Shown here in pieces: positions 2,468 through 59,270 of a stretch of 64,000 bases of DNA. Location: the sequence record NC_049438.1. One strand, given 5' to 3'. This DNA comes from Acinetobacter phage vB_ApiM_fHyAci03. The notes beneath the pieces are model-generated. The model worked only from the letters and a program-made list of their open reading frames with translations, was not told where the DNA came from and ran no database searches. Each line of letters begins with the position of its first letter. Position 1 is the first letter of the stretch. A program made the position numbers and the translations under genes.

Positions 2468-2501
2468 CTATTATACTAAACATTGATTTGAAAGTAAACA
2501 T
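2468..2501 (-). promoter_or_regulatory. T4-type early promoter (minus strand: GTTTAC -35, 18-nt spacer, TATAAT -10) upstream of rIIA.1/rIIA
   Basis: Plus strand shows ATTATA (2470..2475) and GTAAAC (2494..2499). Confidence 0.6.
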
Positions 2502-2526
2502 TTAAATGCAAAAAGTTTAGACAAAA

Positions 2527-2652
2527 TTAAAGGACCCTGAGGTCCTTTTTAAATTTATCTTTGCGATAGTATTTTGATTTGTCTTTTACAACCTGCATTT
2601 TAAATGCAGGTGTTCTGACAGCTTTTGCGATCGGATTACGTTTACCTTTCAT
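2527..2652 (-). CDS. ArfA-like small basic protein (alternative ribosome rescue factor A-like); stop codon inside terminator hairpin
   Basis: 41-aa ORF MKGKRNPIAKAVRTPAFKMQVVKDKSKYYRKDKFKKDLRVL, absent from the ORF track because it is under 60 aa. It aligns with the ArfA core ([37 protein letters not shown]). GGAG Shine-Dalgarno sits 8 nt upstream. The ATG overlaps the upstream TGA as ATGA. Confidence 0.35.
   Translation of the reverse strand: MKGKRNPIAKAVRTPAFKMQVVKDKSKYYRKDKFKKDLRVL
2529..2548 (-). terminator. rho-independent terminator hairpin (AAAGGACC-CTGA-GGTCCTTT) followed by a U-run; contains the arfA-like stop codon
   Basis: Perfect 6-8-bp stem. The mRNA reads …GGACCUCAGGGUCCUUUAAUUUUG. 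Confidence 0.6.
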
Positions 2653-3917
2653 TTCCATAACTCCAAATATTTATTCTCTAGATCTTCCGGTACAAAGAAA
2701 TGGCTTGCAAAAAATGCGTCCATACCTGTGACAAGATTTCGATCTTCTCGAATAGACATACCACATGCTTTGTCGCCAATTATCCATGAACCGATGATAG
2801 GATAATAACCGTCATGCGGTTGAATATCATGCCATTGTTGATACATATAGCCCCAGTGATCATATTCAGGCACTTTGTGCGATCCGGGTGCTAAATGACT
2901 AAGCTCTTCGCCTGAACAAAATTGTGAACGATAAATATTTGAACCTTCACGTCCATGAATTGCTTTCTTAGCATACTGCCCGGATTTCGGACGATGGTTC
3001 CCATCAAAGCTTGCTAACAAGTTAGGATGATTAGGGAACATTTGCCATAACTTGACAAGCATCGCTTTGTTTGAAAGTAACATTTTCCATGCAGGTTCCA
3101 TCCATCGTGTATTAGTGCAATCAAGAATGTCAGATCCAAATTTCTCTTCAGTCATCCATTCCCAAGGATAAAGTTTAAAACAATTTTTGATCTCTTGGTC
3201 TTGAAGATCAATGAATGATTTAGTTTCGGGACCAGTGCCAATACGTTCTTTCAAAAGGCCAATGTCTTGCATTTGCAGTTCTTTGACTGATAATCCTGCT
3301 CGAAGTGCAGAATCCATCAAATAAACTAAATTGCCAAAGTCTTCATGGCGGAATCCGCCACTTGATGCAAAATGAACTAATTCGCCGGGTTTAAATCGAG
3401 ATTGCCATACTTCTTGAAGAGTTTCATCAATAAGATTATATTGAATGCGCAGATCGTCAGGATAATCTCTTCCATCAGGAAGTTTCTTCATACCTTCGAT
3501 ATAATTCCATTGTGCAACAGAACACTCAAGAATTGAAACTGGTGTATCGCCATTGTACTCAAACATTTTCAATGAATTGTCCCAGCCAAATGCAAGGTCA
3601 AAACGTCCATATAATGATTTGTCGCCACGTTTCCATGATTGTTCAATTAACGGAATTGAATTTTCATCCAAGTTGAAGTATTCAGGGTAATCTCCAGACG
3701 TGACCATTTGCTCTACCATTGCACATGACATATCATGAAGTTCTTGTGTTGCGGCTTGAATGCGATCAATTTCACTTTCTGACATACCATACACTACACC
3801 TTCTTGCCAATACGGTGCACCTTCAGGACCGGATGGAGCATTCCAATAGTTGAAGCCGATTCCCTCTAAAAGCTCGACATGATTAGGGCGAATTTCGAAA
3901 TTAGTATGTCGTTTCAT
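2649..3917 (-). CDS. glutathionylspermidine synthase-family ATP-dependent amidoligase (GspS synthetase-domain homolog)
   Basis: 422 aa. Whole-length resemblance to the synthetase domain of bacterial glutathionylspermidine synthase (GSP_synth family). No amidase (CHAP) domain is present. Confidence 0.65.
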   Translation of the reverse strand: MKRHTNFEIRPNHVELLEGIGFNYWNAPSGPEGAPYWQEGVVYGMSESEIDRIQAATQELHDMSCAMVEQMVTSGDYPEYFNLDENSIPLIEQSWKRGDKSLYGRFDLAFGWDNSLKMFEYNGDTPVSILECSVAQWNYIEGMKKLPDGRDYPDDLRIQYNLIDETLQEVWQSRFKPGELVHFASSGGFRHEDFGNLVYLMDSALRAGLSVKELQMQDIGLLKERIGTGPETKSFIDLQDQEIKNCFKLYPWEWMTEEKFGSDILDCTNTRWMEPAWKMLLSNKAMLVKLWQMFPNHPNLLASFDGNHRPKSGQYAKKAIHGREGSNIYRSQFCSGEELSHLAPGSHKVPEYDHWGYMYQQWHDIQPHDGYYPIIGSWIIGDKACGMSIREDRNLVTGMDAFFASHFFVPEDLENKYLELWK

Positions 3918-3980
3918 ATTTTCACTCAGGTTGTAGTGTATAGAAGTATTTTAAACAATATTACTAGCGATGTAAACTGT

Positions 3981-4939: not shown

Positions 4940-5281
4940 TTAAATATCAATGTTTGAGTACTGTGCAATGATTGCAAGTCCTACAGAAATGAAGACCAAT
5001 CCAACCCAAGCTCCAACATCTAAGTTTTGATTAAGCATTGCTTTAGCTAGAAATGCGGTGGCAATGGCTCCAAGGCCTGACCACATGACATATAAAATTC
5101 CAGCTTGCATATATTTCAATGCAATAACACAAGCAATAAATGATCCGGCGTATAATGCAGCACCAATCACCAAAGGTACAATATTATTAAATCCATCTGC
5201 CTTAGCCATATAAATCGTTGAGACAACGTCGGTTACAATGGCAACAAGTAACCATACTACGCCCAACTGAACCGGCGTCAT
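4940..5281 (-). CDS. SMR-family (EmrE/Gdx/SugE-like) small multidrug-resistance transporter
   Basis: 113 aa with four predicted TM helices. Aligns to EmrE (…MWSGLG… and …QNLDVGAWVGLVFISVGLAII… versus AYAIWSG…QRLDLPAIIGMMLICAGVLII). Asp replaces the TM1 Glu14. Confidence 0.7.
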   Translation of the reverse strand: MTPVQLGVVWLLVAIVTDVVSTIYMAKADGFNNIVPLVIGAALYAGSFIACVIALKYMQAGILYVMWSGLGAIATAFLAKAMLNQNLDVGAWVGLVFISVGLAIIAQYSNIDI

Positions 5282-5711: not shown

Positions 5712-6731
5712 TTATTTTTGGATTAAATCCAACCAAATTTCTCGAATTTCAGTGGTAACAATTTTCTGCAATTCTGCTTTGAATTTTGAAGGTTGCTGAG
5801 CTGCATTCAAAGTAAGACCTTCACGTTCGGCTTCTTCAAAAATATCTTTCATTGTAAGTCCCATTACTTTGCCAAAGTCTTTAGTTGTCACTTCACCAAT
5901 GTGAGAAACAACATTCGAGATACGAGCTTTAGTAACATATTCACTGAATTTGCTCAAGAGTTCTAAGTCTTCAGGCGGTAACGGAGTAGGGATTTTAGGA
6001 AGTTTTGATTTGCCTTTTTCTTTAAACTTGTCAGTTTTGTATTTGATTGCAAGTCGAGATCCACTGCGCAAGAACATTGGAGTATTTGGCTTGATGACAA
6101 GACCTTCTGCAACATTATCTTTAGGAGCAGGTTGTGGGTGAACGCTATACATATTTTCCCATGTCAATGATGGTACAATAGAATCGAATTCAACCGGTAA
6201 TTTCAAAAGTTGTTCAAGTGTACCACGAGCAATTAATGGAGCAATTTTCAATCCACGATAATCGCAGAATTCTTGAACTTTATCATCAGCCCACCATCCA
6301 TGTGAAAACCCTGCATCTGGTGCATCCATATAGATGTCAAATACATAGAATGATTTAGGGCCATAATCAACTTCTTTCTGGATTCCTTCACCTGCATATT
6401 CACCAAAGATTTGCATACTTTTGAATGAAGGCACGTTAGCAACAAGATCACTTTGAATTGCTTCAAATACGTCAATCAAGTCTTTCATTAGATCTTCATA
6501 TCCGAAGAATTTTTCAGTTTCACCAATGAAACCTGAACGTTTTGCAGGTTTGATAGAGTCCGCTGTAATGACAACCGAGAAGTTTGTGCCATGAATTTTT
6601 TCACGAGCTACAAATTCTGTGTTGACTGAACCTTCACCCAGTGCAATAGCATCAAAACATTGGCGAATGAATTTATCGTTAGTGTGGTTTTCAAGGCTTG
6701 AATATTTAATGAAAGACATATTGTTCTCCAA
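5712..6731 (-). CDS. rnlB: RNA ligase 2 (Rnl2, T4 gp24.1 family)
   Basis: 339 aa. N-terminus matches T4 Rnl2 (KYSSLENH…; nucleotidyltransferase motif I KIHGTNF; …FGEYAGPGIQK…DYGPKSFYVFDI…). Confidence 0.85.
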   Translation of the reverse strand: MENNMSFIKYSSLENHTNDKFIRQCFDAIALGEGSVNTEFVAREKIHGTNFSVVITADSIKPAKRSGFIGETEKFFGYEDLMKDLIDVFEAIQSDLVANVPSFKSMQIFGEYAGEGIQKEVDYGPKSFYVFDIYMDAPDAGFSHGWWADDKVQEFCDYRGLKIAPLIARGTLEQLLKLPVEFDSIVPSLTWENMYSVHPQPAPKDNVAEGLVIKPNTPMFLRSGSRLAIKYKTDKFKEKGKSKLPKIPTPLPPEDLELLSKFSEYVTKARISNVVSHIGEVTTKDFGKVMGLTMKDIFEEAEREGLTLNAAQQPSKFKAELQKIVTTEIREIWLDLIQK

Positions 6732-7373: not shown

Positions 7374-7840
7374 ATTGTGCCTTCCAATTTTCAGGAAGTT
7401 TGACTACATCGAAATGTGGTTCACGAATAACTTTTTCATACTCTTCCATCTCCAAGCTTCCGAGACCCTTGATGTAACGGAAACTATAGCCTTTAAGATT
7501 AGGTTTGTCTGCTTCATAATCTTCAATAGTGTAGTACCATTTTTGATCTTTGCCTTTCTGACAAATTGCTACTGGAGTTTTGACAAACTTGATTCGCCCT
7601 TGTTCAAAAAGTTCAGGCCAATTACTGAAAAATGCAAGCAATGATGGATAAATTGAACCAGTCCCGTCTTAATACTCGAAGTTAAAAATTAGATTAGCCC
7701 GAAGGCTAATCTACATCCGCATCTGTCATAATGGCGATGTTGCGATAATTCATAGTACTAGTGAAAGTACGGCGTACATTAGTTTGAGCTTTATAAGTGT
7801 TCATATCAACATCAGTTTTTGCGATTTGAGTTAATTTCAT
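7318..7840 (-). CDS. 60: DNA topoisomerase II small subunit gp60, translated in two segments joined by a 40-nt ribosomal bypass (segment 1 7709..7840, gap 7669..7708, segment 2 7318..7668)
   Basis: Segment 1 (MKLTQIAKTDVDMNTYKAQTNVRRTFTSTMNYRNIAIMTDADVD-stop) matches the T4 gp60 N-terminal 46 aa. Segment 2 (DGTGSIYPSLLAFFSNWPELFEQGRI…) matches T4 gp60 from its landing site (GLGSIYPSLLGFFSNWPELFEQGRI…). The joined product is 160 aa, the same length as T4 gp60. Confidence 0.8.
7692..7711 (-). promoter_or_regulatory. take-off stem-loop of the translational bypass (GAUUAGCC-UUCG-GGCUAAUC), holding take-off codon GAU and stop UAG in the 5' arm
   Basis: Perfect 8-bp stem with a UUCG tetraloop. This is a near copy of the T4 gene 60 take-off hairpin. 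A GAG lies 6 nt 5' of the landing GAC (7666..7668), as in T4. Confidence 0.75.
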
Positions 7841-10233: not shown

Positions 10234-10253
10234 AAGGGAGCATTAGCTCCCTT
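10234..10253 (-). terminator. terminator hairpin (AAGGGAGC-ATTA-GCTCCCTT) between lysozyme gene and gene 39
   Basis: 8-bp perfect stem followed by a T-rich run. Confidence 0.55.
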
Positions 10254-17154: not shown

Positions 17155-17177
17155 AAAGGAGCCATTTGGCTCCTTTT
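17155..17177. terminator. bidirectional terminator (AAAGGAGCCA-TT-TGGCTCCTTT with A/T runs on both sides)
   Basis: Lies immediately 3' of the macrodomain gene. It would also terminate plus-strand transcripts coming from repeat copy A. Confidence 0.6.
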
Positions 17178-20433: not shown

Positions 20434-20457
20434 TTTTACTAATTATTTTTTACTACA

Positions 20458-20477
20458 ATGGAGCCTTACGGCTCCAT
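20458..20477. terminator. terminator hairpin (ATGGAGCC-TTAC-GGCTCCAT)
   Basis: Perfect 8-bp stem with a T-run on the plus side. Confidence 0.5.
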
Positions 20478-20482
20478 TTTTG

Positions 20483-23711: not shown

Positions 23712-23726
23712 ATTTAAACCTCAAAA

Positions 23727-23746
23727 AAGGGCACAATGTGCCCTTT
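23727..23746 (-). terminator. terminator hairpin (GGGCAC-AAT-GTGCCC)
   Basis: 3' of the 45-aa ORF. A- and T-runs on either side. Confidence 0.5.
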
Positions 23747-48453: not shown

Positions 48454-48466
48454 TTTAGACAAAAAT

Positions 48467-48488
48467 AAAGGACCCATTTGGGTCCTTT
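48467..48488 (-). terminator. terminator hairpin (AAAGGACCCA-TT-TGGGTCCTTT) inside the polymerase-splitting insert
   Basis: Near twin of the 17155..17177 hairpin. Confidence 0.55.
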
Positions 48489-48501
48489 AGATAAAATGAA
48501 A

Positions 48502-59250: not shown

Positions 59251-59270
59251 AAGGGACCTTGTGGTCCCTT
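59251..59270 (-). terminator. terminator hairpin (AGGGACC-TTGT-GGTCCCT) between the nrdH-like gene and gene 55
   Basis: Perfect 7-bp stem. Confidence 0.5.

Follow-up and report, generated by a model that had tools for sequence, protein, structure and literature searches.

ArfA (PF03889) is the alternative ribosome-rescue factor A of gamma- and beta-proteobacteria. Like BrfA, it is made from a non-stop mRNA, is repressed by trans-translation and backs up transfer-messenger RNA (tmRNA) (PMC8012679). The roles of individual ArfA residues are taken here from the same review (PMC8012679): F25 makes a hydrophobic contact with release factor 2 (RF2), the strand Q27-E30 augments the RF2 sheet, and the N-terminal segment (residues 1-14) becomes ordered when RF2 opens and is activated. 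Residues beyond 40 are needed as well, a 1-40 truncation being inactive, and structures show the chain up to residues 46-48 (PMC8012679). Here, we analyzed a 64,000-nucleotide (nt) stretch of the genome of Acinetobacter phage vB_ApiM_fHyAci03 (NC_049438.1), referred to below as the window, which carries a mini open reading frame (mini-ORF) of 41 codons plus stop at 2527..2652 on the minus strand. The encoded peptide, MKGKRNPIAKAVRTPAFKMQVVKDKSKYYRKDKFKKDLRVL, is labelled only 'hypothetical' in the annotation, and its relationship to ArfA is the subject of this work. An earlier note on this DNA had placed a 41-residue ORF between a GspS-like gene and rIIA.1; the same 41 residues were read here, with the strand corrected to minus (ATG 2652-2650, TAA 2529-2527; GspS-like gene 2649-3917 and rIIA.1 2235-2435, both minus).

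Family membership and relationship to ArfA

The peptide clearly matches Pfam DUF7230 (PF23876): its residues 6-39 align to positions 3-35 of the 42-position profile and score 45.9 bits (cut-off 27; E 6.3e-12). It also matches phrog_2701 (E 2e-16). Both family labels stand for proteins of unknown function. Starting from the phage group, an exhaustive HMMER search gave 253 cluster representatives at E<=1e-3, with the consensus [KR]NP[IV]AKxLRTP[KR][FY][KR]x[RQ]VVKxKKxYxRKxKHK; the ArfA hallmark KKGKGSY occurs in a minority of the family members found in this way. The broad family alignment from this search (A2) matched the ArfA alignment in hhalign with a probability of 94.6% (E 7e-8, 38 columns), and when the A2 profile was compared with the whole PDB the six best matches were all E. 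coli ArfA chains (E 9e-6 to 2e-4). In Pfam, 12 of 149 family members match ArfA at E<=0.01 and 131 match DUF7230. As a control for circularity and lysine composition, the 57 most ArfA-like members were taken out before re-alignment. Even so, the reduced profile matched ArfA in an unchanged register (score 25.8, P 1.3e-4), with a score of 14.9 for reversed ArfA and of at most 13.1 for 20 column-shuffled controls.

Bridging sequences connect the two families. All eight of the viral-contig mini-proteins that carry KKGKGS[FY] lie above the Pfam ArfA gathering score (27.9-39.7 bits), and the window peptide is 73% identical to one of them over 22 residues. P0255, which came out of the exhaustive search and likewise exceeds the ArfA gathering score, shares 67% identity with the window peptide over 21 residues. 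Taken together, the profile-profile match, the PDB matches and the bridging proteins argue for DUF7230 as a sister branch of ArfA, from which it differs mainly by a three-residue deletion in the KGK loop. Judged by these comparisons, the window peptide is very probably a true, remote homologue of ArfA belonging to the DUF7230 branch.

Several observations weigh against this assignment or limit it. The earlier note had called the peptide ArfA-like and proposed a profile search with Pfam ArfA (gathering score 25.5 bits); that search gave no match at E<=10, and E. coli ArfA scored 89.5 bits as a control in the same scan. The likeness to ArfA thus stands as remote homology through DUF7230 and not as a direct family match. 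The NCBIfam scan returned no family for the mini-ORF, and none for E. coli ArfA either. A pairwise BLASTP alignment with E. coli ArfA (36% identity over 33 residues) is only suggestive. The narrow, phage-only profile (A1) found no ArfA in the PDB, only weak matches to uS14 and designed proteins, and reached a probability of just 9% against ArfA in hhalign, A1 having too little diversity. Since A1 alone does not reach ArfA, the link rests on the broad alignment and the intermediate sequences. Moreover, the peptides are short and Lys-rich, so composition somewhat inflates the scores, and the controls address this only partly. In the literature, we found no paper mentioning DUF7230 and no experiment on any DUF7230 protein.

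These points bear on the possibility that the likeness to ArfA is convergent or compositional, and that the mini-ORF encodes a generic small basic nucleic-acid-binding protein or an otherwise unrelated phage protein. The very short, Lys/Arg-rich peptide, the missing direct match to the ArfA model and the weak uS14 and designed-protein matches of the narrow profile are what such an origin would lead one to expect. However, the peptide and ArfA share the motifs N-x-I, P-x-F-[KR]-x-[QR]-V-x-K and Y-x-R-K-x-K in collinear order, a graded series of intermediates exists, and the reversed and shuffled controls score far lower, and we consider convergence very unlikely. A relationship to ArfT or KGG-repeat proteins was ruled out, as DUF7230 was the sole family returned by Pfam at E<=10; ArfT has been placed in another, repeat-containing family of wide distribution (PMC6514570). 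The connection between DUF7230 and ArfA appears to be unreported so far. One JGI record calls a homologue 'ArfA'.

Correspondence with the functional residues of ArfA

The core of the peptide, KRNPIAKAVRTPAFKMQVVKDKSKYYRKDKF, aligns to ArfA residues 12-45. Residues N8-T16 fall on the ArfA helix 15-24, P17 on P23, and F19 on F25, this Phe being invariant in the phage group. M21-V24 correspond to the RF2-augmenting strand Q27-E30, with K-M-Q-V-V opposite R-Q-R-V-E. By sequence, the elements for docking RF2, namely the Phe and the β-strand, thus appear to be present in the phage peptide. Further along, Y30-R32-K33-K35 align to Y39-R41-K42-K44 of the ArfA tail that occupies the mRNA channel, the phage tail Y-Y-R-K-D-K-F-K-K lying opposite Y-M-R-K-G-K-H-G-N. 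Overall, the peptide covers the equivalent of ArfA residues about 8-52, which reaches past the end of the inactive 1-40 truncation and past the last residues seen in the structures (46-48).

On the basis of this alignment, we favour, on balance, the view that the peptide acts as a release-factor-dependent ribosome-rescue factor and represents a minimal, phage-borne member of the ArfA superfamily. Cleaved or truncated mRNAs abound when a T4-like phage infects and once nuclease-type defences have acted, and ribosomes would translate them up to their 3' ends. The empty mRNA entry channel of such a stalled ribosome would take up the C-terminal half of the peptide, which is rich in Lys and Arg (KDKSKYYRKDKFKK), and the segment P-A-F-K-M-Q-V-V (equivalent to ArfA P23-L24-F25-R26-Q27-R28-V29-E30) would recruit the host class-I release factor through β-strand addition and the conserved Phe. 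Peptidyl-tRNA would then be hydrolyzed and the ribosome recycled without tmRNA tagging. Ribosome binding, release-factor recruitment, the timing of expression and the transcript 3' end are all features that we infer from the comparative analysis.

Some features of the peptide sit less easily with a rescue factor of the ArfA type. The K-H of ArfA is replaced by K-F (or K-Y) in the phage clade; many other DUF7230 members keep KHK. All alignments show a three-residue gap at KGK, leaving the peptide without the KGKGS loop. ArfA residues 1-11 have no counterpart, as only five residues precede the aligned core, and a Lys occupies the position of ArfA A18. Given the missing N-terminus and loop, the K-F and the Lys at A18, activation of the release factor may differ from that by ArfA or be absent. 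An AlphaFold2 model of the 41-mer (predicted local distance difference test score 67) was mostly low-confidence helix and uninformative; for a free 41-mer, disorder is to be expected.

The same features could be read as those of an ArfA mimic directed against the host. Such a protein would fill the empty channel or A-site of stalled or vacant ribosomes and block tmRNA-SmpB, ArfA/ArfB or a defence factor that targets ribosomes, or it would park ribosomes with no release. The ribosome-binding half and the strand for docking the release factor are retained and the N-terminal segment of ArfA is absent, and the Lys at A18 recalls the A18T variant of ArfA, which binds and recruits RF2 but fails to activate it (PMC8012679). 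On the other hand, bacterial DUF7230 proteins share the short N-terminus and the Lys, yet their genes carry the non-stop layout of genuine back-up factors (described below), and the same N-terminal motif is found in phage proteins above the Pfam ArfA cut-off. A mimic thus seems distinctly unlikely.

Conservation of the gene in phages

By tblastn, the ORF occurs in 69 phage records, of which 67 come from Acinetobacter phages, and it adjoins rIIA.1/rIIA in most of the T4-like orthologue loci retrieved. The core KRNPIAKAVRTPAFKMQVV is invariant over eight diverged phages, and across all pairs of these eight the codon differences comprise 346 synonymous versus 116 non-synonymous changes. Judged by this substitution pattern, the mini-ORF is a real gene under purifying selection in T4-like Acinetobacter phages. 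The last C-terminal residues are free to vary (DLRVL, HLNED, SYE and NFKNFD). In the record of Acinetobacter phage 133, a 94-residue ORF in another frame is given over the DUF7230 ORF (L006 278-562; …NPIAKAVRTPAFKMQVVRDRTKYTRKEKYKTF*), and this longer ORF is probably a mis-annotation.

Related genes extend well beyond cultured phages. Using a sub-alignment and a degenerate DNA pattern to locate homologous loci, at least 120 viral contigs (IMG/VR, L026-L145) were found to encode NP[IV]AKx[LV]RTP... mini-proteins. Several viral contigs encode a conserved N-terminal extension, MPGKWDG[KR]SRxSNxxYxxxFDRIF, fused to the ArfA-like core. A tblastn search of the phage collection with a KGKGS-type phage peptide gave no match, probably through the low-complexity filter.

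Terminator hairpin and stop codon

At its 3' end the mini-ORF runs into a terminator-like hairpin, AAAGGACC-TCAG-GGTCCTTT, at 2529..2548 on the minus strand (GC core 2545-2532), which is followed by AATTTTGT. The folding energy is -16.6 kcal/mol (z = -4.2), and in the AB-Navy1 record this hairpin carries a terminator annotation. The GC hairpin at the 3' end of the ORF and the U-run after it, both described in the earlier note, are thus present. The structure is formed by the last seven codons, AAA AAG GAC CTC AGG GTC CTT (K-K-D-L-R-V-L), with the A-tract of the terminator supplied by the Lys codons. Relative to the protein, its start coincides with that of the hairpins in bacterial DUF7230 genes, immediately behind the basic tail. 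A U-rich tract, UUUAAUUUUGUCU, follows the GC core (2519..2531, minus) and holds the UAA stop at 2529-2527. The extended stem ends with an A-U pair formed by the U of this stop, whose two A's lie outside the stem in the U-tract, 2 nt past the GC core. The description of the stop codon as buried in the hairpin does not hold, as the UAA sits at the 3' edge of the stem with its two A's unpaired. Pairing of the whole UAA occurs only within a longer A/U-rich extended helix that is possible on read-through RNA; this extension is 17-18 base pairs (bp) long and is perfect in Morttis.

About 11 terminator-like hairpins adjoin ORF ends in the window, and only the mini-ORF reads through a whole hairpin; at all the others, the 3' end of the stem comes 18-44 nt after the stop. 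The idea that the layout is a generic by-product of a compact genome was ruled out, as the other window terminators come after the stops or overlap them only at their start. Counting perfect hairpins of 8 bp or more, the window has about 28 distinct ones (44 raw matches versus about 8 in Markov-simulated sequence), for example at 7690-7713, 10234-10253, 17155-17176, 20457-20478, 23726-23746, 48466-48489 and 59251-59270. Many of them have the form AAAGGxxCC-loop-GGxxCCTTT and follow gene ends. They appear to constitute the terminator family of the phage, to which the hairpin at 2548-2529 appears to belong.

Intrinsic termination typically frees the RNA 7-9 nt after the stem. With termination at this distance the RNA would end ...GGUCCUUUAAUU(UU), the UAA being kept with 2-4 nt after it, so canonical termination should dominate. 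In the scheme that we propose, the mini-ORF would be the final cistron of a short transcription unit with sigma-70-like promoter matches, and its last seven codons would double as the intrinsic terminator of that unit. The default product would be the 41-residue peptide, released by normal termination at the in-frame UAA. As the UAA at the 3' edge of the hairpin would permit normal release, expression would be constitutive and not repressed by tmRNA.

Stop codon layout in phage and bacterial relatives

The position of the stop relative to the hairpin varies among relatives. In Acj9 and Ac42 the stop precedes the terminator. ZZ1 lacks the hairpin altogether, and its ORF is immediately followed by the next gene. 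A stop at the edge of the stem is found in Lazarusvirus, PhT2 and Acj61, whose loops (UCAG, UACG and UUCG) differ only synonymously. In Morttis (L009 504-650) and Maestro (L147 304-450) a common frameshift moves the stop to 24 nt past the hairpin, and in the metagenomic Acj61-like contigs L148 (883-1059) and L149 (1001-1177) a TGA to TTA change moves it to 51 nt past the hairpin, the products being 48 and 58 residues long. Among the matches listed, which are mostly viral contigs, 118 of 130 distinct motif loci have no terminator-like hairpin near the stop, and most viral homologues have ordinary stops. In one viral contig (L129), a strong terminator hairpin, AGAGGTGGGGG-TTAG-CCTCCACCTCT with a T-run behind it, has the stop TAG of a homologue in its loop, so that stop and terminator closely overlap here too.

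DUF7230 genes are also found in ordinary chromosomal context, in Pseudaquidulcibacter, in metagenome-assembled genomes (MAGs) of other Caulobacterales/Hyphomonadaceae, in a Pseudomonadota MAG and in MAGs of the candidate phyla radiation (CPR) (L012/L017 4001-4165; L018-L021; L022-L025; match at ~1501-1690 in each). At the proteobacterial loci a GC-rich hairpin lies inside the ORF directly after the KHKK codons, with a U-tract in most of them, and the CPR loci likewise have an in-ORF hairpin. The stop of the bacterial genes is 15-130 nt further 3' of the hairpin, and the read-through tail is often hydrophobic. This corresponds to the non-stop layout of arfA and brfA, which makes sense only for a back-up rescue factor and argues for a rescue function of DUF7230. 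A survey from 2024 found arfA in 0 of 2,376 Alphaproteobacteria (PMC11633108); given this zero and the presence of DUF7230 in Caulobacterales, the DUF7230 branch seems to have been missed.

The earlier note had held that the phage gene gives rise to a non-stop message exactly as E. coli arfA does. Arguing against this are the UAA located in the U-tract, a layout that is conserved neither in orthologues nor in viral homologues, and a core of 8 bp that is short for RNase III. In its full form, the model of the note would have the gene keep the tmRNA-sensing circuit of ArfA: transcripts would end at the hairpin or be trimmed back into it, many would lose the UAA, and the peptide would be tagged and destroyed by tmRNA, accumulating only once trans-translation is saturated. 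Such a circuit would agree with the fact that the mini-ORF, alone among the roughly 11 terminator-associated ORFs of the window, reads through its whole terminator, with a hairpin that starts right after the basic tail as in the true non-stop homologues of bacteria. It would also agree with the stops beyond the hairpin in Morttis/Maestro (24 nt) and L148/L149 (51 nt), two phage lineages that indicate that non-stop versions are viable. tmRNA-SmpB acts with up to 9 nt of mRNA beyond the P site, and ArfA with up to 3 nt (PMC8012679). A ribosome at the UAA of the terminated RNA, with about 2-4 nt after the stop, would have 5-7 nt past the P site, which is within the range of tmRNA-SmpB and outside that of ArfA (PMC8012679). 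Against this, the in-frame UAA is only 2 nt past the GC core and would be kept by termination 7-9 nt after the stem, the stop precedes the hairpin in Acj9 and Ac42, ZZ1 has no hairpin, and the large majority of motif loci (118 of the 130 among the matches listed) lack a terminator near the stop. The 8-bp core stem would be short for RNase III cleavage, and repression of its own factor by host tmRNA would bring the phage little benefit. A conserved circuit of this kind is, in our judgement, unlikely. The combined proposal, in which DUF7230 is a widespread unrecognized ArfA branch, present in many phages and in bacteria presumed to lack ArfA (Caulobacterales, CPR), and also serves as a tmRNA-sensing switch in the Acinetobacter phage clade, with 3' trimming or stop loss producing non-stop messages, is improbable to the same degree, as is its corollary that the factor accumulates only when trans-translation is overwhelmed by mRNA cleavage induced by the phage or by host defences. 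The most plausible view of the terminator inside the ORF is that it represents a remnant of the bacterial non-stop design or a shortened version of it. In our reading, the phage clade inherited or re-created the terminator-in-ORF layout, and the version in the window ends translation normally, a partial non-stop regime being the less likely case.

The earlier note had also pointed to a second hairpin within the ORF. This hairpin is real, although it has a 9-bp and not a 10-bp stem and lies at 2591-2611 and not at 2592-2612; a functional role for it finds no support. It is a perfect 21-nt palindrome with a 3-nt loop (2591..2611, minus) over the codons for T-P-A-F-K-M-Q-V, and folds with -12.3 kcal/mol (z = -3.7). 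The pairing largely follows from the fixed codon bases of P-A-F-K-M-Q (e.g. GCA-U with A-UGC), and comparable perfect hairpins are common in this genome. Uncompensated synonymous changes (CAG to CAA, GCA to GCG or GCT, AAA to AAG and TTT to TTC) weaken it in PhT2, Morttis, Acj61, Ac42 and phage 133. A regulatory or RNase III site was ruled out by these changes and the codon constraint; cleavage here would destroy the core of the protein, unlike in arfA. As synonymous changes break the pairing without compensation, the palindrome is taken as incidental and is, as far as the comparison tells, probably non-functional.

Genomic context and expression signals

The window is 99.9% identical to AB-Navy4, a T4-like Acinetobacter phage of the genus Lazarusvirus, and the genes around the mini-ORF are all on the minus strand. 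A GGAG Shine-Dalgarno-like site (2661..2664, minus) lies 8 nt 5' of the ATG at 2652, and a ribosome-binding site for this gene is annotated in the AB-Navy4 record. An alternative start at ATG 2658 would give 43 residues; it is less likely because it is only 2 nt from the Shine-Dalgarno-like site. Homologues and GenBank records begin at MKGKRNP, that is, the 41-residue form is the one annotated. As read from the sequence, the mini-ORF starts within an ATGA (2649..2652, minus) whose TGA ends the GspS-like gene, and this overlap suggests that the two genes are translationally coupled.

The GspS-like gene (2649..3917, minus), of the glutathionylspermidine-synthase family (GSP_synth, Pfam E 6e-107), would belong to the same putative transcription unit. 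A sigma-70-like promoter match upstream of it, TTTACA-17-TAAAAT (3948..3976, minus; a consensus match only), is a candidate start of this two-gene unit. A further sigma-70-like match, TTTACT-17-TATAAT (2470..2498, minus), lies just past the terminator, ahead of rIIA.1 and rIIA. With this promoter-like site after the hairpin, the hairpin probably marks the end of the two-gene transcription unit, with the mini-ORF as its last gene. Downstream follow rIIA.1 and then rIIA (1-2214, minus). Upstream, an SMR-family transporter gene (4940-5281, minus) lies at a distance of 1 kb, with a DUF1190-like protein and a small ORF between it and the GspS-family gene, and a T4-type RNA ligase 2 (5712-6731, minus) is encoded in the same orientation about 3 kb upstream of the mini-ORF. 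A scan of the 64,000-nt window gave no tRNA or tmRNA gene and no Rfam family.

The SMR pair MdtJI exports spermidine, and the GspS-family gene, ATGA-coupled to the mini-ORF, could form a polyamine-handling module with the SMR-family transporter. In PhT2, rnlB is found two genes upstream of the ArfA-like ORF (L007 1-80). It may be speculated that repair by RNA ligase 2 and ribosome rescue jointly counter host defences that cleave RNA.

Comparison with known rescue systems

If the peptide is a true working rescue factor, phages routinely bring their own tmRNA-independent ribosome rescue, with the motif in at least 120 viral contigs. Stalled ribosomes would then be a contested resource in infection, where destruction of host mRNA and nuclease-type defences create non-stop complexes. 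A Pfam family of unknown function and several PHROGs would gain a function. The peptide would represent the smallest natural ArfA-type factor, with neither N-terminal arm nor KGKGS loop, and could inform on how release factors are activated without a stop codon. ArfA-type rescue regulated by non-stop messages would further extend to Alphaproteobacteria, where the 2024 survey found none (PMC11633108), and to the CPR.

In the literature on ArfA, ribosome rescue and phages, we found no experimental characterization of phage ArfA-type mini-proteins. Gene g10 of Citromicrobium phage RXM is annotated as ArfA in a genome note, without experiments (PMC8953757). As far as the literature found goes, phage-borne ArfA-like genes are thus visible in annotation yet unstudied.

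The closest described system is ArfA itself. The window protein shares with it a collinear arrangement of a short helix, a Pro, the conserved Phe, a [KR]-x-[QR]-V-x-K strand and a Y-x-R-K-x-K tail. The active part is of similar size, ArfA being modelled to residues 46-48, and in both genes the basic tail is directly followed by a hairpin that still falls within the 3' end of the ORF. The two differ in that the phage stop is found at the edge of the hairpin, whereas that of ArfA lies 17-18 codons downstream, and in that the window gene is phage-encoded and, as its overlap suggests, translationally coupled to another gene. The phage peptide also falls below the Pfam ArfA threshold, lacks residues 1-11 and KGKGS, and has K-F for K-H and a Lys at A18. 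The viral mini-proteins that do pass the ArfA threshold (e.g. MKHNPIAKQVRTPKFKPRVVKPKKGKGSFKRKKKV) have the same N-terminal half, NP[IV]AKx[LV]RTPxF[KR]x[QR]VVK, the same minimal length and, among the matches listed, mostly ordinary stops, but the KGKGS[FY] loop, missing from the window protein, is retained in them. BrfA of Bacillus and ArfT of Francisella are, similarly, small release-factor-dependent rescue factors with basic C-terminal tails, and BrfA is likewise made from an mRNA terminated before the stop codon (PMC8012679); their sequences show no detectable relationship to the window ORF, which matched neither. Within DUF7230 and PHROG 2701, of which the window peptide is a direct member, the link to ArfA and the non-stop layout of the bacterial genes are proposed here.

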